Of a DNA stretch of 59,369 bases, positions 16,663-58,814 are shown one piece after another. The DNA comes from a virus. Taxonomy: Duplodnaviria; Caudoviricetes. The translations under genes were made by a program, and so were the position numbers. The stretch covers positions 1 to 59,369 of the IMG/VR virus record IMGVR_UViG_3300038608_000027; one strand, given 5' to 3'. Numbering within the stretch: position 1 is the first letter of the stretch; every line of letters begins with the position of its first letter. The notes below the pieces were generated by a model. It was given only the letters and a program-made list of their open reading frames with translations. It searched no databases and had not been told where the DNA came from.

Positions 16663-17723
16663 GTTTCACCACAACCTTTTCTGTGTTCGTTCATTATTTC
16701 GTAAAATTCCGCTTCCTCAAGTCCTGTTATTTCCAGGAAATAATCCAAAGCTTTTGGCCTAACAGGATCGTATTGCTTAACTAATTCAAACGCCTCTTCC
16801 CTTGTTAACTTACCATTCAAAATATCACCGCAGGCATGGTCGGTTGCCCTGCCAAACCCACGCTTTAGATATTTTGCATAATCGTGGACACCAGGCATAA
16901 TACATTCAACGGATTTATATCGTTTATAAGTACCTTCAACATCGCACTCCTGCCATCCAAATTTACGTTTAATCAACTCAACCTGTCTTTCAGTATCCCA
17001 TTTAATATAATCACCTAAATGGATACCTACAATTCCAACCTTCTTGTATTCCTCTAAAGAAGGGTAATTAAAAGGAAACAAGTCTTTGGCGGTTATATCT
17101 TTACATAACATTTCCCCATTGCCGCATTTTTGGCTTATTTTCATGAAATAATCATAATCATATTTGATTGGATTATCATAACTAGCCTTGTAATACTCAG
17201 AAGCAGACTCACCCCACACAATTAAGGGTATATTCCATTTAACGGCTACTTGCATAGGGAACGCCCCTACCCCTGCATGACACGTCCAGCAAGCATCTCC
17301 TATCTTAATAAGGCTTTGTTTAGCTAATTTATTAACTAGCTCCCTATTAGGAGTAAACATAATATGGTCAATGTTTAATTTCTCTAATGTATTCCATAAG
17401 TTAAATTTACCTGTTTCACTAAACCAATTATGAGAAAAGGTTACTGCTAACGGCTTTAACCCGTAAAGTTCCTTAACAACGTAAAGTTGATAGGTAGAAT
17501 CTTTACCGCCGCTAATAGGTACAAGGCAATCGTAGTTATCACCTGACCTACTTTTGTATTCCTCAAATATTTTCGCTAATTGCTTTTTTCTTTCCACCCA
17601 ATTAATCTTTTGTTTTTGTTCATAAGATTGACATGCCTGACATATTCCGTTCTCGTTAAATGTTATTCCCTCCGCAGTTTCCGGCATAACACATTTTGTA
17701 CAGTAACGAAGTTCTCTATTCAT
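16629..17723 (-). CDS. N-acetyl sugar amidotransferase (PseA/PtmG/WbuX family)
   Basis: YCTKCVMP, YDCLVPISGGKDS PP-loop, CWTCH, WGE, KYLKRGFGRATD. Confidence 0.9.
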   Translation of the reverse strand: MNRELRYCTKCVMPETAEGITFNENGICQACQSYEQKQKINWVERKKQLAKIFEEYKSRSGDNYDCLVPISGGKDSTYQLYVVKELYGLKPLAVTFSHNWFSETGKFNLWNTLEKLNIDHIMFTPNRELVNKLAKQSLIKIGDACWTCHAGVGAFPMQVAVKWNIPLIVWGESASEYYKASYDNPIKYDYDYFMKISQKCGNGEMLCKDITAKDLFPFNYPSLEEYKKVGIVGIHLGDYIKWDTERQVELIKRKFGWQECDVEGTYKRYKSVECIMPGVHDYAKYLKRGFGRATDHACGDILNGKLTREEAFELVKQYDPVRPKALDYFLEITGLEEAEFYEIMNEHRKGCGETWPGNSEHKHK

Positions 17724-18277
17724 TTTTCAACACTCTCCGTTTTTTTTAGTAAACCAAATTCAATAACATCAACATATTCACCGTTCTTGAAGAGTGCTTG
17801 CCTCCGGTTACCTTCTTCTTTGAAGCCCAGAGCTATCGCTAATTTTTTCATAGCGACATTACCTTCCATTGTACCGCAAGCTATACGATTAAGATTAAGT
17901 GTCTTAAATCCATGTTCAATAAGCAATTGATATGCTTCAGTTGCGTAACCTTTTCCCCAAAACTCTTTTTCACCGATAATAATTGATATATCTGCTGTTC
18001 TATTTATAAGGTTAATATTTTGCAGAGCTATGTTACCTATATGAGTATCTTTTGCTTTGTCGGCTTTTTTAACAATTATAGCTAGGATAATATTATCTTT
18101 TGTATTGTTAGCAAAGGTAATATAATCTTCCGCTTGTTTATGTGTATAAGGAAAAACAAGATGTCCATTATATTTACAAACTTCGGGATCGTTTAACCAG
18201 TTAGGATAACCCCCAAGAAGGTCATCAAATTCTAATGGCCGAAGATAACAGATTTTTCCGTTTAGGAACTTAGACAT
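17720..18277 (-). CDS. GNAT N-acetyltransferase (RimJ/PseH-like)
   Basis: IGEKEFWGKGYATEA acetyl-CoA motif; LGFKEEG. Confidence 0.9.
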   Translation of the reverse strand: MSKFLNGKICYLRPLEFDDLLGGYPNWLNDPEVCKYNGHLVFPYTHKQAEDYITFANNTKDNIILAIIVKKADKAKDTHIGNIALQNINLINRTADISIIIGEKEFWGKGYATEAYQLLIEHGFKTLNLNRIACGTMEGNVAMKKLAIALGFKEEGNRRQALFKNGEYVDVIEFGLLKKTESVEK

Positions 18278-18881
18278 AGACAGTACCAGCTTTTACAAAA
18301 TAATCTTCTCCTACAACAGCACCTTGTGTTATAGTTGCATTTGCACCTATGAAAGCCCTGTCCCCTATCTTCACACCACCACAAATAACTGCTCCAGGAC
18401 TAACCTGTACATGATTACCTATTTCACTATCATGTTCGATAATAGCTCCAGAATTAATAACCACATTCTGTTTTATGGTTACCCCTGTTCCTATAATTGC
18501 TCCCGGAAAAATAACCGTACCACCTAATATATTGTTTTCACTACTATTTATAATTGCCTGAGGAGAAATTATTGAAGGGAAAACAAATCCCATATCTTGA
18601 TAATGCTCAAACACCTCTTCTCTCTTTTTGTTATCAAAACCCGCAAACCCTAAAACAGCATATTTTAAAGGCGACCACGGCGGCTGGGAATTAGTAGTTG
18701 CCCAAATTTGAGAATCATCACCTAAATACGGAATACCTAGCTTACTTAACCTGTTATTTGGGTTAACGTCAGTAACACCTATTATTTCATAACAATCGCT
18801 AACAATATTCGCCACCATAACAGCATGTCCGCCCCCACCAGCAATTATGATGTTGGGTTTAGCCTTTTTATTGTTTGGCAT
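18270..18881 (-). CDS. NeuD/PglD-family sugar acetyltransferase (left-handed beta-helix)
   Basis: GGGGHA, hexapeptide repeats, IIEHD motif. Confidence 0.9.
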   Translation of the reverse strand: MPNNKKAKPNIIIAGGGGHAVMVANIVSDCYEIIGVTDVNPNNRLSKLGIPYLGDDSQIWATTNSQPPWSPLKYAVLGFAGFDNKKREEVFEHYQDMGFVFPSIISPQAIINSSENNILGGTVIFPGAIIGTGVTIKQNVVINSGAIIEHDSEIGNHVQVSPGAVICGGVKIGDRAFIGANATITQGAVVGEDYFVKAGTVYV

Positions 18882-19918
18882 ACTTCAATTATTTCCTCCT
18901 TTTCCAAAGTTGTTGAACTTGGCAAACATATCCCTTTATTCCAGATATGTTCTGCATTAATTCCTTTAGTGAAATTATAATTTCTATATGCTTCCTGCTG
19001 TGAAAATGGTTTAAATACTGGCCTGGCTTGTACTCCTTCATCTAGTAAACCTTCTATGACCTCCCTTCTGTTACCCTCAACTAATACGCAAGTTAACCAC
19101 CAATTACTTTGACAATCTTCTTGTTCCTTTTGAAAAATATATTGTGGCAATTCTTGCCGGTATAGATGGTTTATTCTCTTTTTCTTTTCTATAAATTCTT
19201 TTCTTCTTTGTAATTGGGCAATTCCTAAAGCTGCTTGCAAATTCGACATTCGATAATTGTAACCTATTTCCTCATGGTCATATTCTAGCTGCCCTGGCTG
19301 CCTTCCCTGGTTTATTAATATTCTGGCCTTTGCTATTAACTCTTTATTGTTACTAGCAATTGCACCTCCACTTCCGGTAGTTATTATTTTATTGCCGTTA
19401 AAACTGTAAACAGCAATATTCCCTTTCCTTTTATATTTTGCACCTAAGGCTTCGCAGGCATCTTCAATAACAAATAATTTGTGAATATTAGCTAACTCCA
19501 TTATTTCTTCCATGCTAGAAGGATTTCCATAAAGATGAACAGGAATTATAGCTTTTGTACGTTTTGTTATAGCCTTCTCTATACTTGCCAGGTTGATTGT
19601 CCAAGTGTCATAGTCTACATCAACAACTACCGGCTTGGCCCCTGTATAAATTACCGCATTAACCGTGGCAACAAAGGATAAATCCGGTACAATTACTTCA
19701 TCTTCCCTACCAATCCCTAATAACATTAGAGCTAAATGTAATCCTGAAGTACCACTGTTAACGGCAACTACATGCTTAAAACCAACACATTCAGCAAGTC
19801 TTTTCTCAAAATCCTCTATAAAACGGCCAGTAGAAACGTACCCCTCATGAACTGCCATTGAAATATATCGTTTTTCACGTTCGCCAATATTAGGAATAGA
19901 TAATGGGATCACCGGCAA
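18845..19918 (-). CDS. legC: LegC-like PLP aminotransferase (DegT/DnrJ family)
   Basis: IPLSIPN, NSGTSGLHLAL, EDACEALG, SFNGNKIITTGSGG, GYNYRMSN; directly after legB. Confidence 0.8.
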   Translation of the reverse strand: MPVIPLSIPNIGEREKRYISMAVHEGYVSTGRFIEDFEKRLAECVGFKHVVAVNSGTSGLHLALMLLGIGREDEVIVPDLSFVATVNAVIYTGAKPVVVDVDYDTWTINLASIEKAITKRTKAIIPVHLYGNPSSMEEIMELANIHKLFVIEDACEALGAKYKRKGNIAVYSFNGNKIITTGSGGAIASNNKELIAKARILINQGRQPGQLEYDHEEIGYNYRMSNLQAALGIAQLQRRKEFIEKKKRINHLYRQELPQYIFQKEQEDCQSNWWLTCVLVEGNRREVIEGLLDEGVQARPVFKPFSQQEAYRNYNFTKGINAEHIWNKGICLPSSTTLEKEEIIEVCQTIKRLNPTS

Positions 19919-20874
19919 AAACCTTCCTTAAAAAGATACAGATTTTCTTTAAGCCAAGATATAGTTTCCTTCAAACCTTCCTCTAAAGTGTACTTCGGCT
20001 TCCAACCAGTTAATTCCCTCATCTTAGTGCCATCACAACATAACCTTTCAACTTCGCTGTTTTGTGGTCTTATTCTTTCTTTGGATTGGCAGCTAAGAAA
20101 TTCTTTATTAGTTAATTTAGCAATCATTTCAGCTAAAGAAACAATACTTATTTCTTCTTCACTTCCTATGTTAATTATTTCACCAATACATTTTTCGTTA
20201 AATCCTATTTTTATAATTCCCCTGACTGTATCAGCAATATAATTAAAGTTTCTTGTTGGTGCTAAATTTCCTAAACTCAATCCCTTGCCTTTTAATAATT
20301 GAGTAATTATAGATGGTATTACCGCTCTTGTACTTTGTCTTGGGCCATAAACATTAAAAGGTCGTGCAATAACGACGGGTAAATTAAATGACCGGTAATA
20401 ACTCAATGCCAATTGATCAGCAGCAATTTTTGTAGCTGCATAAGGTGATTGTGCGTTTAAAGGATGTTTTTCGTCTATAGGTATGTATTGTGCCGTTCCG
20501 TAAACTTCTGAAGTAGAAGTATGTATAACCATTGCACCTTTTCTATAAGCAGCTTCACATACGTTATAAGTACCCTCTAAATTAGTTTTAATATAAGCTA
20601 AGGGAGAAACATAAGAATAAGGTATACTGATTAAAGCAGCAAGATGAAAAACCTTTTCTACATCCTTAACTGCTTTTGATACAGTATCAATGTCTCGAAT
20701 ATCACCTGGACAAAACTCAATTTCTTTCTTTAAATCACTATAATCAAGCCAGCCATACCGGTTTTGCGAATTATAATGTATAAAGGCTTTGACGTTATGA
20801 CCTTGTCTAATTAATTGTTCAGTTAAATGCGAACCTATAAAACCTCCTGCTCCGGTAACTAATATTTTAGACAT
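19909..20874 (-). CDS. legB: LegB-like NAD-dependent NDP-GlcNAc 4,6-dehydratase
   Basis: GAGGFIGSHL, HLAALISIPYSY, TSTSEVYGTAQY, SPYAATK, RPQNSEVERL. Confidence 0.85.
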   Translation of the reverse strand: MSKILVTGAGGFIGSHLTEQLIRQGHNVKAFIHYNSQNRYGWLDYSDLKKEIEFCPGDIRDIDTVSKAVKDVEKVFHLAALISIPYSYVSPLAYIKTNLEGTYNVCEAAYRKGAMVIHTSTSEVYGTAQYIPIDEKHPLNAQSPYAATKIAADQLALSYYRSFNLPVVIARPFNVYGPRQSTRAVIPSIITQLLKGKGLSLGNLAPTRNFNYIADTVRGIIKIGFNEKCIGEIINIGSEEEISIVSLAEMIAKLTNKEFLSCQSKERIRPQNSEVERLCCDGTKMRELTGWKPKYTLEEGLKETISWLKENLYLFKEGFCR

Positions 20875-21702
20875 CTAATCCTTCCTTAGCAGATATTCTG
20901 CATAATTAAAATCATTATTTGTGTCAATATCTATTGACCTTTCCGCCGGCATTATATAAGGATATGTCTTGTCCGTATAATACACCCGCTGGTTTTTTAA
21001 TATATCATACCGGAAAATATATATTGCTCCATTAGGAATATAAAGCTGTTCTTCTTCTTGACGGTTTTTTAAGTTTTTTTCATCACCAAAATACTCCCGC
21101 AAAATTCCGTTTTCGTCAATACGCTTATACCATGAAATCGGTTGAGGCGCACAGGTTACGGAAATAACACTATCGGCTTTTTTTGCCTTAAATAAAACTA
21201 TAGCATTATCTATATCCTCAGCTACCCTAAAAGGTGAAGTAGGTAGTAATGCTGTGAACACTCCCTCCGCCTTAGAGGCGGGGGCTTTCAGGCAATAGCC
21301 AGAGACTGTGTTCCCAGTCTCAAATGTATTGTTAGTAATATAATCTTCCGCTTGTTTATGTGTATAAGGAAAAATAAATTCGCTTTTCTTGTTGACAGTC
21401 TCCATCACATGAAGATAAGTATTAATTATTTTTGAATCATCTCGCGCTAGTTCAACAGGACGTATAAGCACTTCCGCACCGTATGTTTTGGCAACTTCAG
21501 CTATTTCTTCACTGTCAGTTGAACAAATTATTTTGTTAACAAAAAAAGATTTTTTAGCAGCCTCGATAGTATAAGCAATTAAAGGTTTGCCATTTAACAA
21601 CTTAATGTTCTTTCCAGGCACTCCTTTTGATCCGCCCCGGGCGGGTATTATCGCCAGTATTTTAATTCCCCCTTTAAAACTTAAAACCCATCTTTCAACC
21701 AC
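20875..21702 (-). CDS. neuA: CMP-nonulosonate synthetase (NeuA/LegF family) carrying a ~39-aa in-frame insertion; true start may be a few codons downstream
   Basis: IIPARGGSKGVPGKNI, STDSEEI, LLPTSPFR, PNGAIY, SIDIDT. Confidence 0.88.
   Translation of the reverse strand: MVERWVLSFKGGIKILAIIPARGGSKGVPGKNIKLLNGKPLIAYTIEAAKKSFFVNKIICSTDSEEIAEVAKTYGAEVLIRPVELARDDSKIINTYLHVMETVNKKSEFIFPYTHKQAEDYITNNTFETGNTVSGYCLKAPASKAEGVFTALLPTSPFRVAEDIDNAIVLFKAKKADSVISVTCAPQPISWYKRIDENGILREYFGDEKNLKNRQEEEQLYIPNGAIYIFRYDILKNQRVYYTDKTYPYIMPAERSIDIDTNNDFNYAEYLLRKD
21254..21334 (-). mobile_element. 81-nt IS200/IS605 right-end-like palindromic element, copy 1 (in frame in neuA)
   Basis: Follows TTAC and ends in TTCAC. 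Two hairpins (gagactg/cagtctc and ccgcc/ggcgg). 78/81 identical to 23347..23427. Confidence 0.75.
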
Positions 21703-22712
21703 GCCAACACGATCTCCCTTTCAGTTTCCTGGCAAACCGGACACTGGTCTTGATCGTACCCTAATCTTCTAAACAGAGGAAGTTTGAAAATGGGTACAAC
21801 ATAGCCTCGTTTACACCCAAATATTTTATCATCAACCCTTGACTCGCCTTCAGTATAAGCATACCGATAAAATGAATGTTTACAGTCATCTCTTACATTT
21901 ACAGGAAAATGTATGGCAAGTTCTCTAACCCTTCTAAGTATCCCATCTAGTTTTTTTAATTGTTCTCTGGCAATAGCCGCTTGCAGCTCGGTCATCCGCA
22001 TATTCATTCCAACGAGAGTATCTTGTCTATATAATACTTGATACATATCGCCAACAACTGCTTCTGCATGGTTCATTAAAAGACGTAACTTGTGAGAAAG
22101 AAGAAAATCATCAGTAATTACAATTCCACCCTCCCCGCAAGTTAAATGTTTGTGATAATTTAAAGAATAAACCCCAATATCTCCTAATGTTCCGGCATAT
22201 TTTCCTTTATAAGTAGCTCCAATAGCCTGAGCAGCATCTTCAATAACATAAAGATTATGTTTTTTTGCAATAGCATTTATAGCCTCAGCGTCATACGGTT
22301 GTCCAAATAAATCCACTACGATAATAGCCTTCGTTTTATCAGTTATCTTTTCTTCTGTTTTTGCAGGATCAATACAATAATAATCAGGTTCAATATCTAC
22401 GAACACTGGTTTGCAGCCAAAATGTAAAGGCATTGAAGCACTGCAGCTCATACTATAAGGTGTAACTATACATTCATCTCCTGGCTTTAATCCAATAGCT
22501 GCACAGGCAAGCCAAAGGCCGCTCGTTGCACTGTTGCAGGCAACAGCATTTCCTGCATTAAAATATTTACACCATTCGTTTTCTAAGTCCTTAATTTCCT
22601 GTCCACCGTAAAAACCCGGTTCTCCCGATACATAATTTCCTACATAACCTGAAAGAATACCCTTCTCTAATACTCTTAAAACTGCCTCCTTCTCTTCTTT
22701 GCCAATGGCCAT
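21681..22712 (-). CDS. DegT/DnrJ/EryC1/StrS PLP aminotransferase (second copy)
   Basis: NSATSGL, EDAAQAIGA, SLNYHKHLTCGEGG, GMNMRMTELQAA. Confidence 0.9.
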   Translation of the reverse strand: MAIGKEEKEAVLRVLEKGILSGYVGNYVSGEPGFYGGQEIKDLENEWCKYFNAGNAVACNSATSGLWLACAAIGLKPGDECIVTPYSMSCSASMPLHFGCKPVFVDIEPDYYCIDPAKTEEKITDKTKAIIVVDLFGQPYDAEAINAIAKKHNLYVIEDAAQAIGATYKGKYAGTLGDIGVYSLNYHKHLTCGEGGIVITDDFLLSHKLRLLMNHAEAVVGDMYQVLYRQDTLVGMNMRMTELQAAIAREQLKKLDGILRRVRELAIHFPVNVRDDCKHSFYRYAYTEGESRVDDKIFGCKRGYVVPIFKLPLFRRLGYDQDQCPVCQETEREIVLAWLKDGF

Positions 22713-22748
22713 AAAATGCCCCCGTTCCTTTCGTAATCCTTTATGTTC

Positions 22749-23645
22749 CTAAAACCTGTAACATGTCTCCAAAGCACTTAATGCGTCAATTCCACTACAC
22801 TTTAAATCCTGCTGTCCCTTCAAAAACATATACATATTATCTACAACATTCCATGAATCATTATCACGATAATCCCAAACAGGTTGGTCTCCTACCATTT
22901 CCTCCCGCCAATGGTACTTTTCAAAGAATAGTTCAATCTGCCATACCCTATAATCTACTTTCACTTCTGTTACCTTAATGTCGGCTGCTAAATCAATAAG
23001 ATTATCCAGTCCAAACATCCAGTCTAAGAAAGAGGAAAAGTGCGAACCAGTGTGGATCAACCCTCTGTTATACTTCGCGCTGATATGAATAAGTTTTCCA
23101 TACTCACCATTCTTATATTTTTGTTTTATATTTTCATAATATGGTTGATAATTTCTAGTATAATTTACAGCCAAAGGTATACCTACATCTTTATACAATT
23201 TTACTATTTCCGTTGCCTGCCGTAAATCTTCACAAATTGGTTTTTCCACTATTACAAGCCTTAATGGATACTGGGCTAATTTTTTTAAAGGTTCATAATG
23301 AGCATTATCATTAGTAGCTACAACTGCAACGTCAATATTTTCTTTCGTGAACACTCCCTCCGCCTTAGAGGCGGGGGCTTCTAGGCAATAGCCAGAGACT
23401 GTGTTCCCAGTCTCAAATGTATTGTTCGTAAATGCCTCTCCGATTGAATGGTATGGAATACCACCCCAAATAGATTGAGCTTTTTTTGCCCTCTCATAAT
23501 CAATATCTACAAAACCGGCTAATTTAAATCCAAAGTGTTTAGTTAGAGCATGAGCAAAAGAAATATATTTATATTCTTTTCCACTTCCTGGCGCATCAGC
23601 CAAACAACCTTGGTTGCCACAACCCACGATTAATCCCTTATACAT
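22749..23645 (-). CDS. Gfo/Idh/MocA oxidoreductase carrying a 27-aa in-frame insertion
   Basis: IVGCGNQG, VEKP, VNYTR, GLIHTGSH. Confidence 0.85.
   Translation of the reverse strand: MYKGLIVGCGNQGCLADAPGSGKEYKYISFAHALTKHFGFKLAGFVDIDYERAKKAQSIWGGIPYHSIGEAFTNNTFETGNTVSGYCLEAPASKAEGVFTKENIDVAVVATNDNAHYEPLKKLAQYPLRLVIVEKPICEDLRQATEIVKLYKDVGIPLAVNYTRNYQPYYENIKQKYKNGEYGKLIHISAKYNRGLIHTGSHFSSFLDWMFGLDNLIDLAADIKVTEVKVDYRVWQIELFFEKYHWREEMVGDQPVWDYRDNDSWNVVDNMYMFLKGQQDLKCSGIDALSALETCYRF
23347..23427 (-). mobile_element. 81-nt IS200/IS605 right-end-like palindromic element, copy 2 (in frame in the oxidoreductase)
   Basis: gcattTAC|element ending TTCAC|gaaagaa; removing it restores EAFTKENIDV. Confidence 0.75.
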
Positions 23646-24657
23646 TTGTCAACTCCCTTGCAATTTCGTAATCTCTTAAATTACCAATGTCCAGCCAATA
23701 ATCCTTTAAAGGAAACATACTCACACGTCTTGCTATTTTGTTTATTAATGCTGGCAAACTATAGGCCTTACCCTTAGGTATTAACTTTAAACATTCTGTG
23801 TTTAAAACATATATCCCTGCATTAATCTGGTGAGTAAAAATAGGTTTTTCATTTATGGTTAATACGTTGTGGCGTTCATTTCTTTCTATCACCCCAAAAG
23901 GTACTTGATATGTATATTCATAAGTACATACTGTCGCTATATTGTTTTCTTTTCCATGAAAATCTAACAACGAACCAAAATCAACTTTCGTTATAAGGTC
24001 ACTATTCATCACAATTACCGGAAGATCACTTTTAATAGGCAGGTATGCCAATGCCCCCGCCGTTCCCAGTGGTTCTTTTTCGTCAATATAATTTATGGTT
24101 ATCCCCCGTTGACTGCCGTTACCAAAATAATCTTTCAACTGATTGGCTAAATAATGAACACAGAAATAAAAATCATGAAATCCTTGACTTATAAAATCTT
24201 CCAGTATGTATTGGAGAAAAGGTTTATCTCCAACCATAAGCATTGGTTTAGGCGCCTTATCTGTCAATGGCCTTAATCTTTTTCCGTATCCCCCTGCCAT
24301 TAAAACAACTTGGTTATCTTTCATACAAAAATCTACATCGTCCATAAGAATAACATCTAACAGTTTTCCTTGAGGGTCAATAACCGGCAGACAGCGAAGT
24401 TTTTGCGCCTTCATATAGGCTAAAGCCTTCTGTTCACCCTCACCATCCCATGCTTTAAAATCATGATTAATTATTTTCTCAATGCTCGTATCTAATGAAA
24501 CACCATCTATAACAGCTCTTCGTACATCGCCATCGGTTAAAATACCGACAAGCTTGTCCTGATGATCAACAATACATATAATACCTTCGCCAGTTGTATT
24601 TAATGCTTTAAGGGCTTCCCGGACAGTTATATTTTCTAATACGGCAAGTTTATGCAA
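23638..24657 (-). CDS. CBS-domain sugar-phosphate nucleotidyltransferase (PtmE/LegX-like)
   Basis: CBS domain GILTDGDVRR; MAGGYGKRLRPLT..PKPM; EPLGTAG; YWLDIG. Confidence 0.9.
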   Translation of the reverse strand: MHKLAVLENITVREALKALNTTGEGIICIVDHQDKLVGILTDGDVRRAVIDGVSLDTSIEKIINHDFKAWDGEGEQKALAYMKAQKLRCLPVIDPQGKLLDVILMDDVDFCMKDNQVVLMAGGYGKRLRPLTDKAPKPMLMVGDKPFLQYILEDFISQGFHDFYFCVHYLANQLKDYFGNGSQRGITINYIDEKEPLGTAGALAYLPIKSDLPVIVMNSDLITKVDFGSLLDFHGKENNIATVCTYEYTYQVPFGVIERNERHNVLTINEKPIFTHQINAGIYVLNTECLKLIPKGKAYSLPALINKIARRVSMFPLKDYWLDIGNLRDYEIARELTNV

Positions 24658-25693
24658 AGTCTTCCACCCCTAGTAATTCATCCTCTTTTATATCCCTTAA
24701 CGCTGTTTTGCCAACCACTGCCATAATAAACCCAGGTTCTAAACCAGTACCAGGCCGTTTGCAAGTCAAGTCCTCTTCCTTAATTACCTTGCCTTGAGGA
24801 ATACCACAAGCCGCCACTATGCTACGACGCATAGTTAATCTATTAGCTAATTCGTTATCTTTCAATCTACGAATACCATCGCTTAAGGAGAGATTAATTG
24901 TTCTAACAGAAGAAACCATTTGCCGCATTTCTTCCGGTGCTATAGATACAGCGCTGTCTAAGCTAAAAACCTCTTCTTCTGAACAGAAATGTTTTTCAAT
25001 AACTGCTGCTCCTAAAGCTGCCGCTCCTATTGCACCTAATGAACCCTTAGTATGATCCGAATAACCTACCGGATAAGAATAATTTTGCGCAAGCGTTTGT
25101 ATATAACGAAGATTTACCGTGCTATAAGGATTAGGGTAATCAGACACACAATGCAGTAAAATTATTTGTTTATTTCCCGTATTTTCAATAGTTTCCACCG
25201 CAAGCCATATTTCTTCTTCTGTCGCCATACCAGTTGACAGCATAATAGGTAAACCTTTATTTGCAGCGTAAGCAAGCAAGGGATAATTGTTTATATCCAT
25301 TGAAGCAATTTTAATATAAGGAGCACATAAAACATCTGCTAAAAAATCAACGTTTTCTTTAGAAAATACGGAAGCAGTGAAGTCAATTTTAATTTTATCG
25401 CAATAGGATTTTAGTTCTTTAAAACCATAAGCACGCAAACAATGTTCATTTAACTCTGTTTCCGTAATGCCTAATTCCGCAATAGCTTGTTTAGAGAATA
25501 AACTCCTCGGTGTCCACATCTGTACCTTTACAGCATCACATCCGCACTTAGCGGCTTTATATGCCAGAAATTTAGCTAAATCCAAACTTCCTAAATGATT
25601 ACTGCCAATTTCTGCCACAACATAAGGGAATTTATACATAGCAATTTCACGATTGCCGATTAAAATGGACATTTCTTTAGTCCCTCCCACCAC
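24650..25693 (-). CDS. neuB: Nonulosonic acid synthase (NeuB/LegI/PseI family) with C-terminal SAF domain
   Basis: AEIGSNH, KIASMD, LSTGMA, LHCVSDYP, GYSDHT, IEKHF, KRPGTG. Confidence 0.92.
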   Translation of the reverse strand: MVGGTKEMSILIGNREIAMYKFPYVVAEIGSNHLGSLDLAKFLAYKAAKCGCDAVKVQMWTPRSLFSKQAIAELGITETELNEHCLRAYGFKELKSYCDKIKIDFTASVFSKENVDFLADVLCAPYIKIASMDINNYPLLAYAANKGLPIMLSTGMATEEEIWLAVETIENTGNKQIILLHCVSDYPNPYSTVNLRYIQTLAQNYSYPVGYSDHTKGSLGAIGAAALGAAVIEKHFCSEEEVFSLDSAVSIAPEEMRQMVSSVRTINLSLSDGIRRLKDNELANRLTMRRSIVAACGIPQGKVIKEEDLTCKRPGTGLEPGFIMAVVGKTALRDIKEDELLGVEDFA

Positions 25694-26403
25694 ATTGAAT
25701 TTTTAATGGCAGGGTTAAGATAACCTCGATTTCGATCGTTCCGACGGTAAAAAGTAGCAGTATCATTTGTATAAACCGCCTTATTACCTGCCTGTAGCAC
25801 TAAGGTAAAAAAACTCCAATCAAAAACAAGCTTAAAATCAGGAATTTTATTTAAAAGTTCTTCATCGTAAACACTTACGGCAATAGCCGTATTTGACATA
25901 CCCAGACAATTCTTATCTCTTATAAAATCTTCCCCTATTATTTCCCCGTTTTTCAACCTGTCGGCAAACATGAACTTAGGTTGGATTAATCCTTCTGTAT
26001 CGAAAAACACAATTTCGTTAAAGACTACTTTATTCTCTGCGAGTAATGTTTTCGATGTTTTAATGCGGTCTCCTGCCATATAATCATCAGAATCCGTCAG
26101 AATTAATGCCTCGTATCCTTCCTCTTTCGCCCAGGCTAAGCCTGCTTTACGGTTTCGAGCAATAGTACCGTTAACTTGTTTAATTTTAACGTCAAATCGA
26201 TTAGGTGAAAAAAGGACTTTACATAGTACCTCTCCCCCTTTTTTTTCCGTGATTTGCTTCGCAAATAGTTCTTTAATATTCGCCTGGTCATTTACAATTA
26301 GAAAATCGAAGTCTTTATCAAGCTGTTGGTTTAAAGACGTTAGCAAATCATTAAAGTAAATCTCTACTCCAGGGTACGTAAAGGTCAAAACGGCCGTTCG
26401 CAT
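25660..26403 (-). CDS. GT2/GT-A fold glycosyltransferase-like protein
   Basis: SLNQQ..DFDFLIVND, LTDSDD (DxD), FDW, FYRR. Confidence 0.75.
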   Translation of the reverse strand: MRTAVLTFTYPGVEIYFNDLLTSLNQQLDKDFDFLIVNDQANIKELFAKQITEKKGGEVLCKVLFSPNRFDVKIKQVNGTIARNRKAGLAWAKEEGYEALILTDSDDYMAGDRIKTSKTLLAENKVVFNEIVFFDTEGLIQPKFMFADRLKNGEIIGEDFIRDKNCLGMSNTAIAVSVYDEELLNKIPDFKLVFDWSFFTLVLQAGNKAVYTNDTATFYRRNDRNRGYLNPAIKNSMWWEGLKKCPF

Positions 26404-26646: not shown

Positions 26647-27198
26647 ATGGAATTAGTACACCCGATTAGAGACAGAAAAAAAATTAAGGCAATGAAAAAG
26701 GCCCTTTTAGAAGGCCCGCAAGGTTGTCGCAATCATCTGCTATTTGTTTTAGGTATTAACTCTGGCTTGCGAATTAGCGACTTATTATCCCTTACCTTTA
26801 ACGACATCATTAACGGAAATGGTGTTAAAAGCAATATAAAAATGAGGGAAAACAAAACAGGAAAATTGAAAGACTTTCCATTGAGCAAAGTTTGTATTGA
26901 CGCAATCAATACTTACGTTACAAATAATCCTTACTCTGCTTTAAGTGATTTACTATTTCCTATCAGCCGTACCAGAGCATGGCAAATCATAAAGCAAGCG
27001 GCTATTAATGTAGGTATTGAGGAAAGAATAGGCACTCACAGTCTAAGAAAAACATTCGGCTATCATGCGTTTAAAGCCGGTGCAGACATCACTAGGATAC
27101 AGAAGCTGCTAAATCACTCAAGTCCAGGGATAACACTAGCGTACATAGGCATTACCAAAGATGAGTTGGATGGCATATATTTGAATTTGAATCTGTAG
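26647..27198 (+). CDS. Small tyrosine recombinase (catalytic domain only)
   Basis: GINSGLRISDLL, EKTGK-like motif, HSLRKTF, LNHSS, TLAYIG; 183 aa with no arm/core-binding N-domain. Confidence 0.92.
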   Translation: MELVHPIRDRKKIKAMKKALLEGPQGCRNHLLFVLGINSGLRISDLLSLTFNDIINGNGVKSNIKMRENKTGKLKDFPLSKVCIDAINTYVTNNPYSALSDLLFPISRTRAWQIIKQAAINVGIEERIGTHSLRKTFGYHAFKAGADITRIQKLLNHSSPGITLAYIGITKDELDGIYLNLNL

Positions 27199-31433: not shown

Positions 31434-31525
31434 TTATAGCAAAGTGATCTGGTGAACTCTTTTCGAGACTGCTTTTTTTTCTTCTTGTTTTGGCTCAGGT
31501 TCTACGATCCGGTTTAAGTATTCAT

Positions 31526-32766
31526 AGCGATTGTCGTTGGAGACCCCCGGATTCATCCGGGGGAGGAAAACGACTTCCTCCTTTCTTTATTTGACAATTT
31601 GTTTTTAATATGATAATATATGAATATGAAATTAACACGCACTATTAAAATCAAACTAAATATTCCTGTTGACGAAATTAAACCAACGCTGGAAGCATAT
31701 ACCGACGCTTTTAACTATGTCTGTCAAACAGGTTGGCAAGATAAAGACCTTAATGGTGTTTCTTTGCACCATAAAACGTATCGAATTACGAGAGTTTACC
31801 TCCCTTCACAGCTTGCCGTTTCTGCCAGAATGAAGGCTACAGAAACGCTTAAATCTATTAAGAAGAAACAAAAAGCAACTTGTCCACGAAGCAAACTTTG
31901 CTCCATCAGGTACGACGCAAGAAGTTATAATATCTGGTTTAACAGAAACGAAATTTCCCTTTTGACTGTTAATGGCAGAAAGAAATTCTTGATAATTATT
32001 CCAGAGTATTTCAAACAATATCTTAATTGGAGACGTACTTCTGCCGATTTGTTCCTGAGAAGAAACGGCATATTTTTGCATATAATTTTTGAAAAAGAAA
32101 TTTCTGATATTAATCCTTCCGGCCAGATTATTGGTGTTGATAGAGGAATTAACAAAATAGCCGTAACCTCTAACAATCATTTTTTTAATGGTGGACAAAT
32201 TAAAAATGTTTCTAGGCGTTATGAGAAATTGAGAAGTGCTTTGCAATCTTGCGGTAGTAAGTCGGCTAAAAGACACCTTCGTGAAATTTCTAAGAAGGAG
32301 AACCGTTTCAGAGCCGATGTTAACCACCGCATTACAAAGCAAATAATTAATTCTCTTTCCCCAGGAACTACAATTATTCTTGAAGATTTGAAGTCTATTA
32401 GACAAACTTCCCGGCTTCGTAAAAAGCAACGTAAGCAACTGCATAAATGGAATTTCTTTCAGTTTCAACAATTTCTTACTTACAAAGCCGAAGCCAAAAG
32501 AATACGGGTAGAATATGTTGATAGCCGGTATACTTCGCAAAAGTGTTCCGTCTGTGGCTATACTTCCCGTTCTAATAGACAACATCAATCTGTCTTCAAG
32601 TGTAAACATTGTGGTTTCTCCCTTAATGCAGATTTAAACGCCTCTAGAAATATCCGTCAAAATTACCTGGACGCTATATGCCATCCGGGTAGGGCTGCCG
32701 TCAACCAGCCTATCGTATCAGCTTCGGCTAGTTACAAGCCTCCGACTTCAGTCGGGGGTAGTTGAC
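31526..32766 (+). mobile_element. Non-autonomous IS200/IS605-family (IS1341-like) element, tnpB only
   Basis: Left hairpin cccccggat-tc-atccggggg ~18 nt after TTCAT. Right hairpin ccgact-tc-agtcgg ending in TTGAC. No tnpA. The left boundary is inferred. Confidence 0.8.
31620..32765 (+). CDS. tnpB: RNA-guided endonuclease TnpB
   Basis: RuvC I IGVDRG, RuvC II ILEDL, Zn finger TSQKCSVCG...CKHCG, RuvC III NADLNASRNI. Confidence 0.95.
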   Translation: MNMKLTRTIKIKLNIPVDEIKPTLEAYTDAFNYVCQTGWQDKDLNGVSLHHKTYRITRVYLPSQLAVSARMKATETLKSIKKKQKATCPRSKLCSIRYDARSYNIWFNRNEISLLTVNGRKKFLIIIPEYFKQYLNWRRTSADLFLRRNGIFLHIIFEKEISDINPSGQIIGVDRGINKIAVTSNNHFFNGGQIKNVSRRYEKLRSALQSCGSKSAKRHLREISKKENRFRADVNHRITKQIINSLSPGTTIILEDLKSIRQTSRLRKKQRKQLHKWNFFQFQQFLTYKAEAKRIRVEYVDSRYTSQKCSVCGYTSRSNRQHQSVFKCKHCGFSLNADLNASRNIRQNYLDAICHPGRAAVNQPIVSASASYKPPTSVGGS

Positions 32767-52476: not shown

Positions 52477-55400
52477 CTATGTTGACTTGGCAAATTTAAG
52501 AATATCTACATATTCTTTTTGTTGTTTTCTAGGAACATTCGTTATTGCTCTTTGAATTGGTGTCATCTTCTTTTTCTTTATCTCGTTCACGATTCGTTCA
52601 GGTGTGATATTTAATTCTCTTAACCTGACTGCTTCTTCTTTTAATTCTTTCAATGCCTGGGTTTTTTCTTCTCCAGGCGAAGCAGTCTTATATTTTTTCA
52701 TAGTTTTAATAAAATCATCAATAACTTGTTTTTCCGTTTCCTGTCTCTTTCTTTCCGTATACCCAATAACACTCTTAACGTCTCTTTCGATAGATTCTCT
52801 AATAGGCATAAAGCCCGTTGCCTTGACAGCTCTTTCTTTTGGTTTTAATCTTATTTTTACTCGTTCCCTATTCCAGGGGTCGGTAATTTCTCCTTCGTTA
52901 AAAGCAGCCAAGGCTATATTACCTGGCATTGGCGCTATTGCCCGTATAGTTTCAATCCAGTTACCTTTTGCCGCCATTTGTGCCGTTCTTACAATTGTGC
53001 TAATTGTTGGCCCGGTTATGTCTCTTAATTCTCCAGGGACAAAATCACCTGCACCAATTCGTCTTGATGCATCTATTCCGGCTTTATGACTAATGCCGTA
53101 CATTATTGTTTTCGCTGCAGTTTGTCTTTCTTTGTCTTCTCCTGCCCATTCCATTAAATGCTTTTTAAGCTCCGATTCCAAGTCAATATTAAACAATGAT
53201 TTAACTGTATTTTTCATTGGCTCAACTAAAGGTATTCCATAGTAACCACTAACCAACAACCAGGGCATCCAAAACCTAACATGTTCCATTCCTTTAAGCG
53301 ACGACATAAATTCCAACTCTTTTACAGGAAACTTCTTGAACTGGAATAAAACCTGTCCAACAGGGCCAGTACGTCTGATAAAAGCAGGCGCATCCGCAAT
53401 TCCATACTCAAACTGCGTTCTTTGGATTGTTTCTTTTGCGTATTCAATAGCCTGTTTTCTAGTCTTGCCTTCCGCTAAGGCTTTATAATAGCTTCCTAGA
53501 CCGGTAGTTCTGCGTAAAAATTTTTCAGCAGTTAGGAATAAAACTAAGGTTTTATTAAACCCCTTTCCTATTTGTGCCGCTTTTGAATATCCTGCACCAC
53601 TTTCTAGCCCTAATTGAATATCCACTCCAATTTGTTTCAAAATACCTCTCTCTGCGAGAGACGGTGAAATAGCTTTCTTTATTCCTATTGCCGTCCACTT
53701 TGCACCTAATAAGGCATTTGTATTGAGCAGCTGAGAGGTATTTATTAAAGCTGGTGATAGGTTATAAAGACCTAGTTTGGCAACTGCAACAGCATTTGTA
53801 GTTGCACTAGCTATCTGTAAAGATGGCCTACTCCCTAGATATTTACCAAAGAATTGATTAACCAAAGGAACTTTAGCTATAGAGCTATTTAATAATTCTT
53901 CAACTGCGGTAGGGTTACCATTTACATCATTTATGTATTCTTTGATGTATTTTGCTATACCTTTATATTCTTTATCAAAAGCTCCAAATTGTTTTTCAAA
54001 TCTGGTTATGTTTCTTGCTTTAAATCCATCCAAAGCCGCGTAACGGGAAATCATATTAAAGTAATGCCTATTCACCCAATCAAGATTATTCTCCCAACCA
54101 GGCGTTCCTTTTCGTTGTAGGAAATTACCTACGAAACGGGAACGACCCTTCATGCGAGCCACATTAGATAACAATTCTTTTGCTTCTTCGTGTGAAAGAC
54201 TGAAGGCTTTTGAAACATTTGATTTTAACTTAAAGTAATTCATATCACCAATAACTGCTGCTTGCACATCACCACCGGGAAATTCAAATTGCTTTGGTAC
54301 AATAGTAATTTTTACGCCTTTTTGCCTAGCTAAAGGATTGCTTCTAAGAACTGCTTCTCTTAATGTTTTTGCACTACCAGCAACTTGGCCATTAACAATA
54401 ATAAACCAGTTGTGAAAATAATGAGGAATATAACCTTCCCTATAATTTACAGGCATTTTCCCACGTAATTCCCTTGTTCTACTAGCGATTGAATGGGCAT
54501 GATCATAAGCTAACCTAGTTAGTTGATACGCTTTAATAACAGCATCATTAGCTTCAAAGTTTTGTTTTAGCTCACTTGGATTAAATTTTTTACCCAGCAT
54601 ATCCCCTGTAAGCAAAATCTCATGTAAAGTTTGTTTGTTTGCTATATAGGCTTTCCCTTCATTAAGGATTTTGTCAATAACATTTAGCCGTTTATCAAAG
54701 ATTGATCTTAATCTTTCTTGTATATTTTGTGACATAATTCCATCATCAACCGTCGGTTTTAATTCAGTATATTTTTTTGCTACCTGAGTAGGTGATTTAA
54801 TTTGTGTTATTAATCCCGGATGTCTAGCTGCTTCCGGTTTAATAATGGTAATTTCTTTACTTGGAATACCTAATTTATCTGCTAATTTAGTAGTAGCAAA
54901 TTTTATGCTTTCGACAACTTTTTCCGGTGGTATACCGGAATAAAGCATAGCAGGGCCTTCTGGTGTATCATCTACTTTTAGAATATCCTCTAGCTTATAA
55001 GCCTTAAGTGTTTTCTCTGATGCGGCCGCTTCCTCGGCAATACGCTTTTCTATGTCATCAGTAAATTTCTTTTTAGGAACAGTTTTTGCTTCTAGTACTT
55101 CTTTTGCACTACCGGAAGGTATTTCTTTTATCTCTCCTAAGCCTTCTAACTCCAAAATCTTTTCCCAATCTTCCGGGGTCTTTGTTTTTTCTGAGGTAAC
55201 TTTTTCTGCTTCTAACAGTTTCCGTTTTTCTTGTGCGGCAAGCATTTTTTCTTGAAATTCTTCTTTTGAAACAGGTTTCTTTGGTATTTCTGTTGGTTGC
55301 GTAATTTCTTTTTTACCGGAAGGTACTTCTTTTACCGATTTTGGTTTAACCTTTACCTCTTGAGATACTTTTTCAGTAGGCGGTTTTTCAATTTTAGTCC

Positions 55401-57584: not shown

Positions 57585-58814
57585 TTACAAGGCCCCCAAT
57601 GCTTCAGTTAATTGATTTATATCTGTATCGTCTAATCCTTTTCTGACTAATGATTCATAAGCAGGTTTTAAATTTGCTTGTCTTGGTGCAGAGAAAAACT
57701 CTTTGGGGGTTTTTCTGGCAACAATGCGTATAAGAGCGTCAACAGCACTTCTTGTATCTACTCCGCTTTCCATAGCGTCCTTGACCCATTCAGGGTCGTT
57801 TAACATTGAATTAACTGCATAATATAAAGGATACTTTCTCTTACCTACCAATTCCTTATAGCGATTTAAACCAGCTTCTAAATAGGTTTTTGTTGCTAAT
57901 TGCTTACGTTCTCCAGCGGTTAAGGCTTTACCGCTGCTTCCGGCGGCAGCTTGTTTTTGTGCACTGGCAGCCAGGTTTGCTATCTGGCTTTGCGCGTCCC
58001 AACTAGGTTGACCGGTTTCAGGATCAATACCGGTTATATCGGCAATAGTTTTTCTTTTGGTTAATGCGTTCAGCATTGCCTGTTGTCTGGCTTCATCCAT
58101 TCTTGTTCTTTGTCCGAAGGTTATGTCCTCTGGACGCTGGCTGCCCTGATAAGCACTAATAGCCTGGGCTAGTAACGGAGCGTCGGCAAAAGCATTATAC
58201 CGTCTCACTTCCTCACCATAGCGGGGTATTCCGCTGGCCGGCCTGGGAGGAGGTGCACTAAGTTTTTGAAGAATATCAACCAGGTTTGCTTGGGCTTGTC
58301 TTGCTCCCTGCTCATATCTGGGTTGGTTGAATTGCTGTGTCAAGGGTTCATTAGCCAGTCTTTTTCTTTTTACTTCTCTGAAGTAGTCTAAATTTGATAA
58401 CATAGGGACGCTATACCCCCTTTTTGGATAATTCGTTGGTTGTTGTTCACGACTGCCGCCACGGGATAATCCCTGGCCTCCAAGGTAGGATTTATATGCT
58501 CCGGTATTATATGCCGTCCACGCTCCCAAGCCCTGGCTTTTATATACCTGAGACGCAGCGTAGGCATTATTATCCGGGTCTTGCAGCCAGTTTACCCAGT
58601 CTTGCCGGTTAGATGATCCTGTCCATTTTTTTAATTTGTCCGCGTGGGACGGCAGGTGAATTTGAAAAAGCCCTACGCTTCCGCCAAGGTTTTTATCGCC
58701 TAATGCTTTAGGGTTGTAATTGCTCTCCGCACCGGCTACGGCCCCTAGAATATTCGCCTGGTTTGCAGGAACGCCATAACCTATTAGCTTTTGGACAATA
58801 TCAGTTACTGCCAC
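57585..58814 (-). CDS. Ejection protein with an N-terminal lytic transglycosylase (SLT-like) domain
   Basis: AGAESNYNPKA...SVGLFQI...DPDNNA...GLGAWTAY. Confidence 0.8.
   Translation of the reverse strand: MAVTDIVQKLIGYGVPANQANILGAVAGAESNYNPKALGDKNLGGSVGLFQIHLPSHADKLKKWTGSSNRQDWVNWLQDPDNNAYAASQVYKSQGLGAWTAYNTGAYKSYLGGQGLSRGGSREQQPTNYPKRGYSVPMLSNLDYFREVKRKRLANEPLTQQFNQPRYEQGARQAQANLVDILQKLSAPPPRPASGIPRYGEEVRRYNAFADAPLLAQAISAYQGSQRPEDITFGQRTRMDEARQQAMLNALTKRKTIADITGIDPETGQPSWDAQSQIANLAASAQKQAAAGSSGKALTAGERKQLATKTYLEAGLNRYKELVGKRKYPLYYAVNSMLNDPEWVKDAMESGVDTRSAVDALIRIVARKTPKEFFSAPRQANLKPAYESLVRKGLDDTDINQLTEALGAL

Follow-up and report, generated by a model that had tools for sequence, protein, structure and literature searches.

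Among the palindrome-associated transposable elements (PATEs), a 52-bp terminal-only derivative of the IS1341-type insertion sequence (IS) ISHwa23 of Haloquadratum is recorded with six strain-specific insertions in the available text of Dyall-Smith et al. (PMC3119063). For ISGst2 mini-transposons, the available text of Meers et al. (PMC10055086) describes a transposase, TnpA, that picked an alternative boundary at a TTCAC motif, from which the authors concluded that spacing is flexible and that capture of flanking sequence is possible; DNA guides beside the hairpins read the cognate motifs. Here, we analyze a phage locus in IMG/VR virus record IMGVR_UViG_3300038608_000027 (Caudoviricetes). The window, i.e., the whole stretch of DNA analyzed, is the complete virus record of 59,369 bp with direct terminal repeats present. 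Two of its genes, encoding a NeuA-like cytidylyltransferase and a Gfo/Idh/MocA oxidoreductase, each carry an 81-nucleotide (nt) insert in which 10 nt of a third phage gene, for a GNAT acetyltransferase, precede a 71-nt core that very probably derives from the right end (RE) of an IS200/IS605 element.

The two 81-nt copies and the origin of their core

The two direct copies lie at 21254-21334 (copy 1, in neuA) and 23347-23427 (copy 2, in the oxidoreductase gene), each on the coding (minus) strand of its gene, and are identical at 78 of 81 positions. TTAC stands directly 5' of each copy, TTCAC forms the 3' end, and the predicted translation of both is NNTFETGNTVSGYCL(K/E)APASKAEGVFT. Target duplication is absent at both copies, and the ambiguity between flank and element end amounts to just 2 to 3 nt (AC or ACG). 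Apart from the extent of this ambiguity, these features had been pointed out in a first, sequence-only reading of the window and are confirmed here; the two hairpins described there became three upon folding (A, B, and C), with z-scores of -3.8 and -4.0 as RNA and -5.2 and -3.5 as DNA. The G+C content of the element is 52 to 53%, compared with 36.6% in the gene cluster around it. The copies differ at element positions 1, 46, and 47. The internal differences are confined to the spacer immediately 5' of a hairpin, where copy 2 has TAGAAG, the RE-like and ancestral type, and copy 1 has TGAAAG, which is nearer to the left-end (LE) type; we claim no functional role for this change. Pattern search, BLAST, and a covariance model revealed no further copies within the phage record, and shuffled sequences lead to an expectation of zero matches.

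Public sequencing data were consulted as Logan unitigs from four runs of a single study, which probably include the source sample; among the public runs listed with this record, none is of RNA. Unitigs in all four runs bridge all four copy junctions (for instance, 21000-21283, 21304-21364, 21345-23376, and 23397-23700). An empty-site joint, as expected of an excised allele, was not seen in these unitigs, from which rare variants are dropped, and this is not evidence of absence.

Hairpin A was used as the query for scanning the sequence collections, and 4 viral and 47 prokaryotic loci were obtained. The 3' ends of tnpB genes account for all 4 viral loci and for 37 of the 47 genomic ones, the tnpB-bearing loci being mostly in metagenome-assembled genomes (MAGs) of Ktedonobacterales and Chloroflexia, and the window element is collinear with them; the remaining genomic loci are six from one Methanothrix MAG without tnpB and four chance matches. 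The TnpB proteins of the relatives end in ...DRDxNA(S/A)LNILRLG(Q/L)QSLASA and a stop, after which the DNA continues into a G+C-rich hairpin and ...GTCAC. One phase of the window element reads ...LRLGTQSLAIA and a stop, a TnpB C terminus comparable with the ...LRLGQQSLASA of the relatives; the two phage genes read the element in another phase. In the alignment of 34 REs, conservation ends exactly at ...TCAC, the end point of both window copies. Hairpins A and B were set by the search pattern, and compensatory variants of hairpin A appear among later model matches; for hairpin C, both-side changes are found in 7 of 8 pairs, and 96.2% of cells are paired compared with 33 to 53% when partners are slid, the observed value being reached by none of 500 shuffles. 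All three hairpins are kept, with covariation, across the family. The likeness to IS200/IS605 ends proposed earlier is borne out by this collinearity and by the stop at the family terminus, and the alignments make it very probable that the 71-nt core derives from the RE of a TnpB-type (IS1341-like) IS200/IS605 element. A complete TnpB guide RNA (omega or reRNA) scaffold is not present: the copies hold its last 71 nt, and the conserved region in the relatives continues upstream through tnpB. Rfam gave no matches at gathering thresholds, and ARAGORN gave no tRNAs.

At the other end of the family, 22 full-length copies, all tnpB-only units, could be aligned. TTAC stands at a fixed place in 16 of the 22 (TTTAC in 8), differs by one base in four rows (TTAT twice, TTGC, and TAAT), and is missing from two; the insertion motif suggested by the sequence-only reading is therefore the left-flank motif of most full-length relatives. 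The order of the LE is TTAC, about 9 to 13 nt, GGCCAGAARG, an RE-like hairpin, ATGAATGG, a TTGACA box, and tnpB, and a module composed of GGCC(T)AGAA(A/G)G and a hairpin is common to the LE and RE. Y1 TnpA is encoded by each of the five family-carrying genomes examined, with 1, 3, 5, 40, and 8 matches. A candidate for an autonomous member with both tnpA and tnpB was rejected, as the tnpA beside that copy sits outside its TTAC and LE and is a neighbor only. A classical miniature inverted-repeat transposable element was likewise rejected: the sole terminal pairing is GAACA/TGTTC (5 nt), in copy 2 only, and the flank overlap of 2 to 3 nt differs between the copies, leaving neither terminal inverted repeats nor a target duplication.

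The window also harbors a resident tnpB-only IS (Table 1). TTCAT, reported as the target-adjacent motif (TAM) of a Geobacillus TnpB in the available text of PMC10055086, occupies 31521-31525, 18 nt upstream of the LE hairpin (31544-31563); the RE hairpin is at 32739-32758, and the element putatively ends in ...TAGTTGAC, overlapping the tnpB stop. Its TnpB tail and RE differ from those of the window element, and it represents a related but distinct lineage. The earlier statement that the ends of the 81-mer are unlike those of the resident element holds for the sequences; however, the hairpin type is the same, and both resident ends give weak partial model matches. The nearest REs (hairpin-A loop GGAACG, end GAGCGTTCAC; GGAACA and GAGTGTTCAC in the window element) are found in one Methanothrix MAG with 19 model matches. 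Among the 18 of these that were examined, tnpB tails of another subtype make up four and tnpB-less elements of about 250 nt roughly 11; one is divergent, and two are minis of about 60 nt, consisting of a left leader, a single hairpin, and ...GTTCAC. The 91-mer yielded no further copies and no parent IS in a BLAST search of phages, the exact G+C-rich hairpin gave nothing in viral contigs (23-mer) or metagenome contigs (24-mer), and its degenerate version retrieved only five loci from metagenome contigs, all of them on the Methanothrix contigs already known.

Several further observations concern these relatives. About 11 Methanothrix elements of about 250 nt have the RE as in the window element and share a conserved left part, ..ATCTTTG GGAGTGGAGAGGGCGAAGCGAGAAGACCCCGCC... 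In full-length copies at seven loci in Ktedonobacterales and Chloroflexia MAGs, hairpin B and the tnpB stop region form a short tandem duplication (GGCTTCGGCCTAG CCGNAGCCTAG...) between tnpB and the RE hairpin. A Chloroflexia MAG of 7.1 Mb has 99 model matches, mostly about 63 nt long and at 22 to 25 bits, together with 40 Y1 TnpA matches, and apparently houses a great many related short hairpin repeats along with IS200/IS605 elements.

Captured GNAT sequence and the insertion sites

The 5' flank of the core comes from the GNAT gene of the same phage. Unitig depth showed that the 40-nt node 21335-21374 occurs twice, and its second copy, identical at 39 of 40 positions, lies at 18118-18157 in GNAT. 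On the coding strand, GNAT reads ...TTTTTCC...GATTATATTAC CTTTGC TAACAATACA AAAGATAATATT..., neuA reads ...TTTTTCC...GATTATATTAC TAACAATACA (71-nt core) AGCATTAC..., and the oxidoreductase gene reads ...GGCATTTAC GAACAATACA (core) G AAAGAAAATATT.... The junction AACAATACA/TTTGAGACTGG (slashes mark joints) is common to both copies, and the GNAT identity reaches 39 nt farther in neuA. The foreign block in that gene therefore measures 120 nt (21256-21375, the 39-nt GNAT copy plus 21256-21335), and the TTAC beside copy 1 itself sits within the copied GNAT patch. Judged by its sequence, each 81-mer is a chimera, 71 nt of IS RE preceded by 10 nt of phage GNAT. Two parts of the sequence-only reading are not supported as they stood: the 81-mer is not a minimal element with both ends, as it has no LE and begins with coding sequence captured from GNAT, and the copies are not simple independent insertions of one fixed unit, as they share the GNAT-RE junction and differ in the length of their GNAT flank.

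The GNAT peptide FPYTHKQAEDYITFANNTKDNIILAI is native, with the same length and similar residues in 12/12 homologues (e.g., FANKTKDALILAI and FANETKDNLILAI; a close homologue has 59% identity), and the peptide encoded by the 39 nt is present in GNAT homologues and absent from NeuA homologues. CTTTGC, which in today's GNAT stands between TTAC and TAACAATACA, is missing in both copies; together with the shared GNAT-core junction, this points to one common junction, formed in a GNAT allele. On the right of copy 2, a 12-mer matches GNAT at 11 of 12 positions, and just 4 such sites occur in 118,738 window positions. No other gene encoding FPYTHKQAEDYIT was found in viral contigs with a back-translated pattern.

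NeuA exceeds 13/13 aligned homologues by 35 residues at the insert point, and its closest homologue (54% identity) is without the insert. Removal of the 81 nt from neuA, which had been thought to restore ITALLPTSP, gives ...QAEDYITALLPT and leaves 13 GNAT-derived residues behind; removal of the 120 nt (21256-21375) gives ...KKSEFTALLPTSPFR (DNA GAATTTAC/AGCATTAC), which fits the (D/N)EF(T/I)ALLPT of the homologues. Equally good is a native neuA of GAATTTAT/AGC (one homologue likewise has EFIALLPT), the 120-nt element then beginning with TTTTCC. In the oxidoreductase gene, removal of the 81 nt gives ...GEAFTKENIDVAVV (DNA GGCATTTAC/GAAAG), the expected insert-free joint being GCATTTAC/GAAAGA; the insert is absent from 13/13 homologues, and the site is a length-variable loop. 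Once the blocks are removed, both sites are ATTTAC/ (GGCATTTAC/GAAAG and GAATTTAC/AGCATT), where the TTTAC/ (or TTTAT/, giving ATTTAT) of neuA is deduced from homologues after the 120-nt removal. The frequency of TTTAC in the window is 0.0019 per position.

Both enzymes appear to tolerate the inserts. The NeuA insert directly precedes the conserved (L)QPTSP(L/F)R strand and splits the Pfam match, and PDB relatives align on both sides of it; the Pfam match of the oxidoreductase spreads 130 residues over 103 profile positions. For the NeuA model, the predicted local distance difference test (pLDDT) value averages 80.1 and drops under 50 at residues 108-113, 119-122, and 124-145; for the oxidoreductase model, it averages 85.7 and drops under 50 at residues 76-101. 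Around these stretches, both folds are modelled with confidence. The foreign blocks of 81 and 120 nt are both stop-free multiples of three in frame, and the two copies are read in the same phase because two of the three top-strand phases of the element contain stops. With inserts that are in frame and free of stops, and with no RNA family matching, little speaks for an intron or a bypass. The inserts are modelled as disordered loops of 27 to 40 residues that would be read through. The in-frame tolerance likened earlier to that of Rickettsia palindromic elements (RPEs) holds at the level of outcome, given the low-confidence loops, the single open phase, and the 13/13 homologues of each enzyme in which the peptide is absent. 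A search with the 33-aa peptide against 1.84 billion cluster representatives returned, besides the two window proteins, 7 short multi-place matches, two of which were inspected and are tandem-repeat proteins with no comparable insert; as the representatives were clustered at 50% identity, insert-bearing variants could be hidden.

The three genes belong to a ten-gene cluster for nonulosonic-acid (legionaminic/pseudaminic-type) biosynthesis at 17720-26403 (minus strand) of the phage genome, which encodes the GNAT, a PglD-like acetyltransferase, two DegT aminotransferases, a dehydratase, the NeuA-like cytidylyltransferase, the Gfo/Idh/MocA oxidoreductase, a CBS-nucleotidyltransferase, NeuB, and a GT2. 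An integrase-family gene (26647-27198) adjoins the cluster. Other phage genes of the window encode a P22-like portal, RecT, an SLT lysozyme, and DNA methylases. A 1,701-aa open reading frame at 52477-57582 (minus strand), which has no Pfam match and is followed by an SLT-domain protein (57585-58814), may encode a virion-associated or ejection protein.

Table 1. Coordinates of the inserts, their flanks, the genes concerned, and the resident IS in the window
Feature	Position	Strand	Remark
GNAT gene (Acetyltransf_3), donor of the captured sequence	17720..18277	-	
Source segment in GNAT: 39/40-mer, C, CTTTGC, TAACAATACA, AAAGATAATATT	18087..18157	-	IS core absent today
NeuA-like CMP-nonulosonate synthetase gene (CTP_transf_3)	20875..21702	-	carries copy 1
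Copy 1, IS-derived core (71 nt): last tnpB codons and stop (out of frame), hairpins A/B/C, terminus ...GTGTTCAC	21254..21324	-	covariance model 69.4 bits
Copy 1, 5' 10 nt TAACAATACA	21325..21334	-	identical to GNAT 18101-18110
GNAT copy in neuA, 39 nt (FPYTHKQAEDYI), 5' of copy 1	21336..21374	-	exact copy of GNAT 18118-18156
Gfo/Idh/MocA oxidoreductase gene (GFO_IDH_MocA)	22749..23645	-	carries copy 2
AAAGAAAATATT, one base 3' of copy 2	23334..23345	-	11/12 identical to GNAT 18089-18100
Copy 2, IS-derived core (71 nt), spacer TAGAAG	23347..23417	-	covariance model 76.1 bits
Copy 2, 5' 10 nt GAACAATACA	23418..23427	-	9/10 identical to GNAT
TTTAC directly 5' of copy 2, family left-flank (TAM-like) motif	23428..23432	-	
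Resident tnpB-only IS (tnpB 31620-32765)	31526..32766	+	putative boundaries

Possible histories of the inserts

The features above could be explained by a peel-and-paste reaction of TnpA that carried a captured flank along. An RE remnant without an LE would first have lodged in a GNAT allele, right after ...AACAATACA. Host-supplied Y1 TnpA would then cut at the genuine RE terminus (TTCAC/) and, as no LE was available, also at TTAC-like motifs of the upstream GNAT sequence, so that the excised units, of 81 nt and possibly also of 120 nt, would bear captured GNAT flank. Re-insertion would have placed these units 3' of ATTTAC (or ATTTAT) in neuA and in the oxidoreductase gene. Because one phase is open and the length is a multiple of three, surface loops interrupted at xTT-ACx codons would leave the enzymes intact, and the insertions would persist and be translated. 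We regard TnpA-type spread from such a GNAT::RE donor, in which a TTAC-like motif farther upstream stood in for the left boundary, as an evenly balanced proposition; it is favored because the family motif is present at both sites and the true RE terminus closes both blocks. It gains plausibility from the complete tnpB-only IS of the phage, which must itself have moved in trans, from the Y1 TnpA of all five family-carrying genomes examined, from the two Methanothrix minis of about 60 nt, and from the ISGst2 and Haloquadratum precedents. Several schemes for the order of events fit, differing in the first GNAT insertion site, in how CTTTGC came to be missing, and in whether a 120-nt element moved or an 81-nt one with a co-converted flank. 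A mixed history, in which transposition was followed by gene conversion between the copies, is quite possible.

A number of observations weigh against TnpA-type spread. No Y1 TnpA is found among the phage-encoded proteins. The 81-mer lacks the LE hairpin and the LE leader, its 5' part consisting of GNAT sequence and then tnpB-tail hairpins with no second TnpA-type hairpin, and in the ISGst2 assay scrambling either end abolished excision, so that both ends were needed (available text of PMC10055086). Neither a parent IS with this exact RE nor the GNAT::RE donor allele was found in the viral, genome, and metagenome collections, where the sequence-only reading had proposed to look for a parent and more copies, or, as regards the allele, in the phage genome; a cognate TnpA was not found either. 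Solo RE copies of this kind were not found in three Chloroflexota genomes, in which 20 of the 24 strong copies examined retain the tnpB tail and 4 are divergent. The copy number in the phage is just two. Within GNAT, the donor-side boundary of the 120-nt form would be CTTGT/, which is not of the TTAC type, and the absence of CTTTGC from both copies is a further difficulty. Lastly, the 11/12 GNAT match on the right of copy 2 is unpredicted by clean peel-and-paste and hints at recombination with the donor.

A more far-reaching version of TnpA-type spread can be put forward only tentatively. In this version, an RE without its LE would work as a "pack" element with a single end, for which any upstream TTAC-like motif would serve host TnpA as the left boundary, and variable coding pieces would be pasted in frame at TTTAC sites. 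The change from TAGAAG to TGAAAG, which falls where IS608-type DNA guides lie, would then retune the motif that is read by the hairpin.

Transposase-free recombination is the main alternative to TnpA-type spread, possible but rather doubtful. A GNAT allele with an in-frame RE remnant would have served as the template for microhomology-mediated template switching or gene conversion, perhaps aided by RecT, and the TTAC and TTCAC junctions would be microhomologies. This reading accommodates the left GNAT flank that differs in length between the copies and the GNAT-like 12-mer (11/12) that copy 2 also has on its right; the GNAT, neuA, and oxidoreductase loci lie within 5.3 kb on the same strand, the phage encodes RecT, and native neuA was probably ...GAATT(T/C)AC..., with microhomology to the RE end TTCAC. 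Neither an LE nor a phage TnpA is present, as would suit such a route. However, it leaves unexplained that both recipient sites are ATTTAC, the family left-flank motif, at 0.0019 per position, and that the RE terminus is precisely where the neuA block stops; chance would also have had to bring about two separate illegitimate events in genes of one operon that are not homologous, which is much to ask, and the donor allele of this reading is unobserved too.

RNA-guided break and repair is improbable. Here, the TnpB of a full-length GNAT copy, with a guide matching the right flank (AAAGATAATATT...), would have cut TTTAC+GAAAGAAAATATT in the oxidoreductase gene, and repair would have copied the element. 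The oxidoreductase site does join TTTAC to a 12-mer that agrees at 11/12 positions with the GNAT sequence after AACAATACA, and homing of TnpB through double-strand breaks and recombination is an established process (available text of PMC10055086). However, the 71-nt core is only the 3' part of a guide RNA scaffold and the sole tnpB of the phage is from another lineage, the right flank in neuA is without GNAT similarity, the homology available for repair on the left is minimal, and the GNAT insertion point, after AATACA, is not a TTAC site.

It is very improbable that the insert has been retained for a function of its own, either as a structured RNA module in the operon mRNA (for processing, for stability, or as a decoy guide RNA fragment) or as a peptide loop that modifies the enzymes. 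The RNA fold z-scores, the three hairpins conserved with covariation in the family, and the same peptide in two enzymes of one pathway are what such a function would lead one to expect; however, the structure is inherited from an IS end and makes a new function unnecessary, the peptide is modelled as disordered, Rfam has no match, and the two tandem-repeat proteins inspected among the 7 peptide matches have no comparable insert. That a repeat was misplaced in two genes during assembly, as a metagenome-derived record might suggest, is extremely unlikely, since unitigs in 4/4 runs bridge all junctions, each copy sits in frame between the two halves of one gene, and the copies differ at 3 positions.

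Comparison with known systems

If TnpA does move an RE-only remnant with its flank, IS200/IS605, the most abundant TnpB-carrying transposon family, can transduce coding bits and seed protein loops, and the flexible boundary choice seen in one laboratory assay gains a natural counterpart. Should the more tentative "pack" version hold, prokaryotes and phages would have a means of shuffling short stretches of coding sequence among unrelated proteins; if recombination is the true explanation, the case is a local sequence-shuffling curiosity of one operon. In addition, transposon debris can persist in phage auxiliary metabolic genes without killing them, which is relevant to annotation (for instance, the split NeuA Pfam match) and to the interpretation of short "novel" loops of viral enzymes. 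In the open-access literature searched, we found no description of an RE-only IS200/IS605 remnant with captured coding sequence translated inside phage genes.

The rolling-circle HUH elements IS91/ISCR and the Helitrons have one reliable end and carry adjacent host sequence along, but they use another transposase class and mechanism. The pieces captured in the window are only 10 to 49 nt, in contrast to the gene fragments captured by those elements. The ISGst2 mini-transposons resemble the window case in the TTCAC end motif, in a TnpA that chooses a motif at a non-native distance, and in the capture of flank; in the available text, however, that capture was an experimental artifact on the RE side with both ends intact, whereas the capture proposed here is on the left side, has no LE, concerns a natural genome, and is unproven (PMC10055086). 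The repetitive extragenic palindromic sequences (REPs) associated with RAYT have, like the window element, G+C-rich hairpins related to IS200/IS605 ends, and single REP hairpins are handled by a Y1 HUH enzyme; according to the available text, REPs lie outside genes, are present in many repeats, and are linked to a domesticated RAYT, and none of these features is seen in the window (PMC3333891).

The terminal-only PATEs share with the window element that they are tiny gene-less derivatives of TnpB-type IS200/IS605 elements with one subterminal hairpin, no inverted terminal repeats, no target duplication, and a presumed mobilization in trans. RE homology with a subterminal hairpin, the family terminus, and a target motif without duplication are all found in the window copies; an LE is not. 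As described in the available text on PATEs, these are produced when the DNA between the LE and RE palindromes is deleted, both termini being retained, whereas the IS part of the window copies is all RE with no LE terminus, their 5' end is captured host-gene sequence, and they are located inside open reading frames and predicted to be translated. RPEs, in the available text of PMC10969869, are like the window inserts short structured in-frame repeats in unrelated metabolic genes that lengthen the protein by a conserved peptide, apparently without upsetting the fold; however, they are about 150 bp, have many copies per genome and no known transposase, whereas the window inserts occur in two copies, have a traceable IS200/IS605 origin, and show no sequence relationship to them. 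In origin, the window element is closest to the terminal-only PATEs; in outcome, it is analogous to the RPEs.

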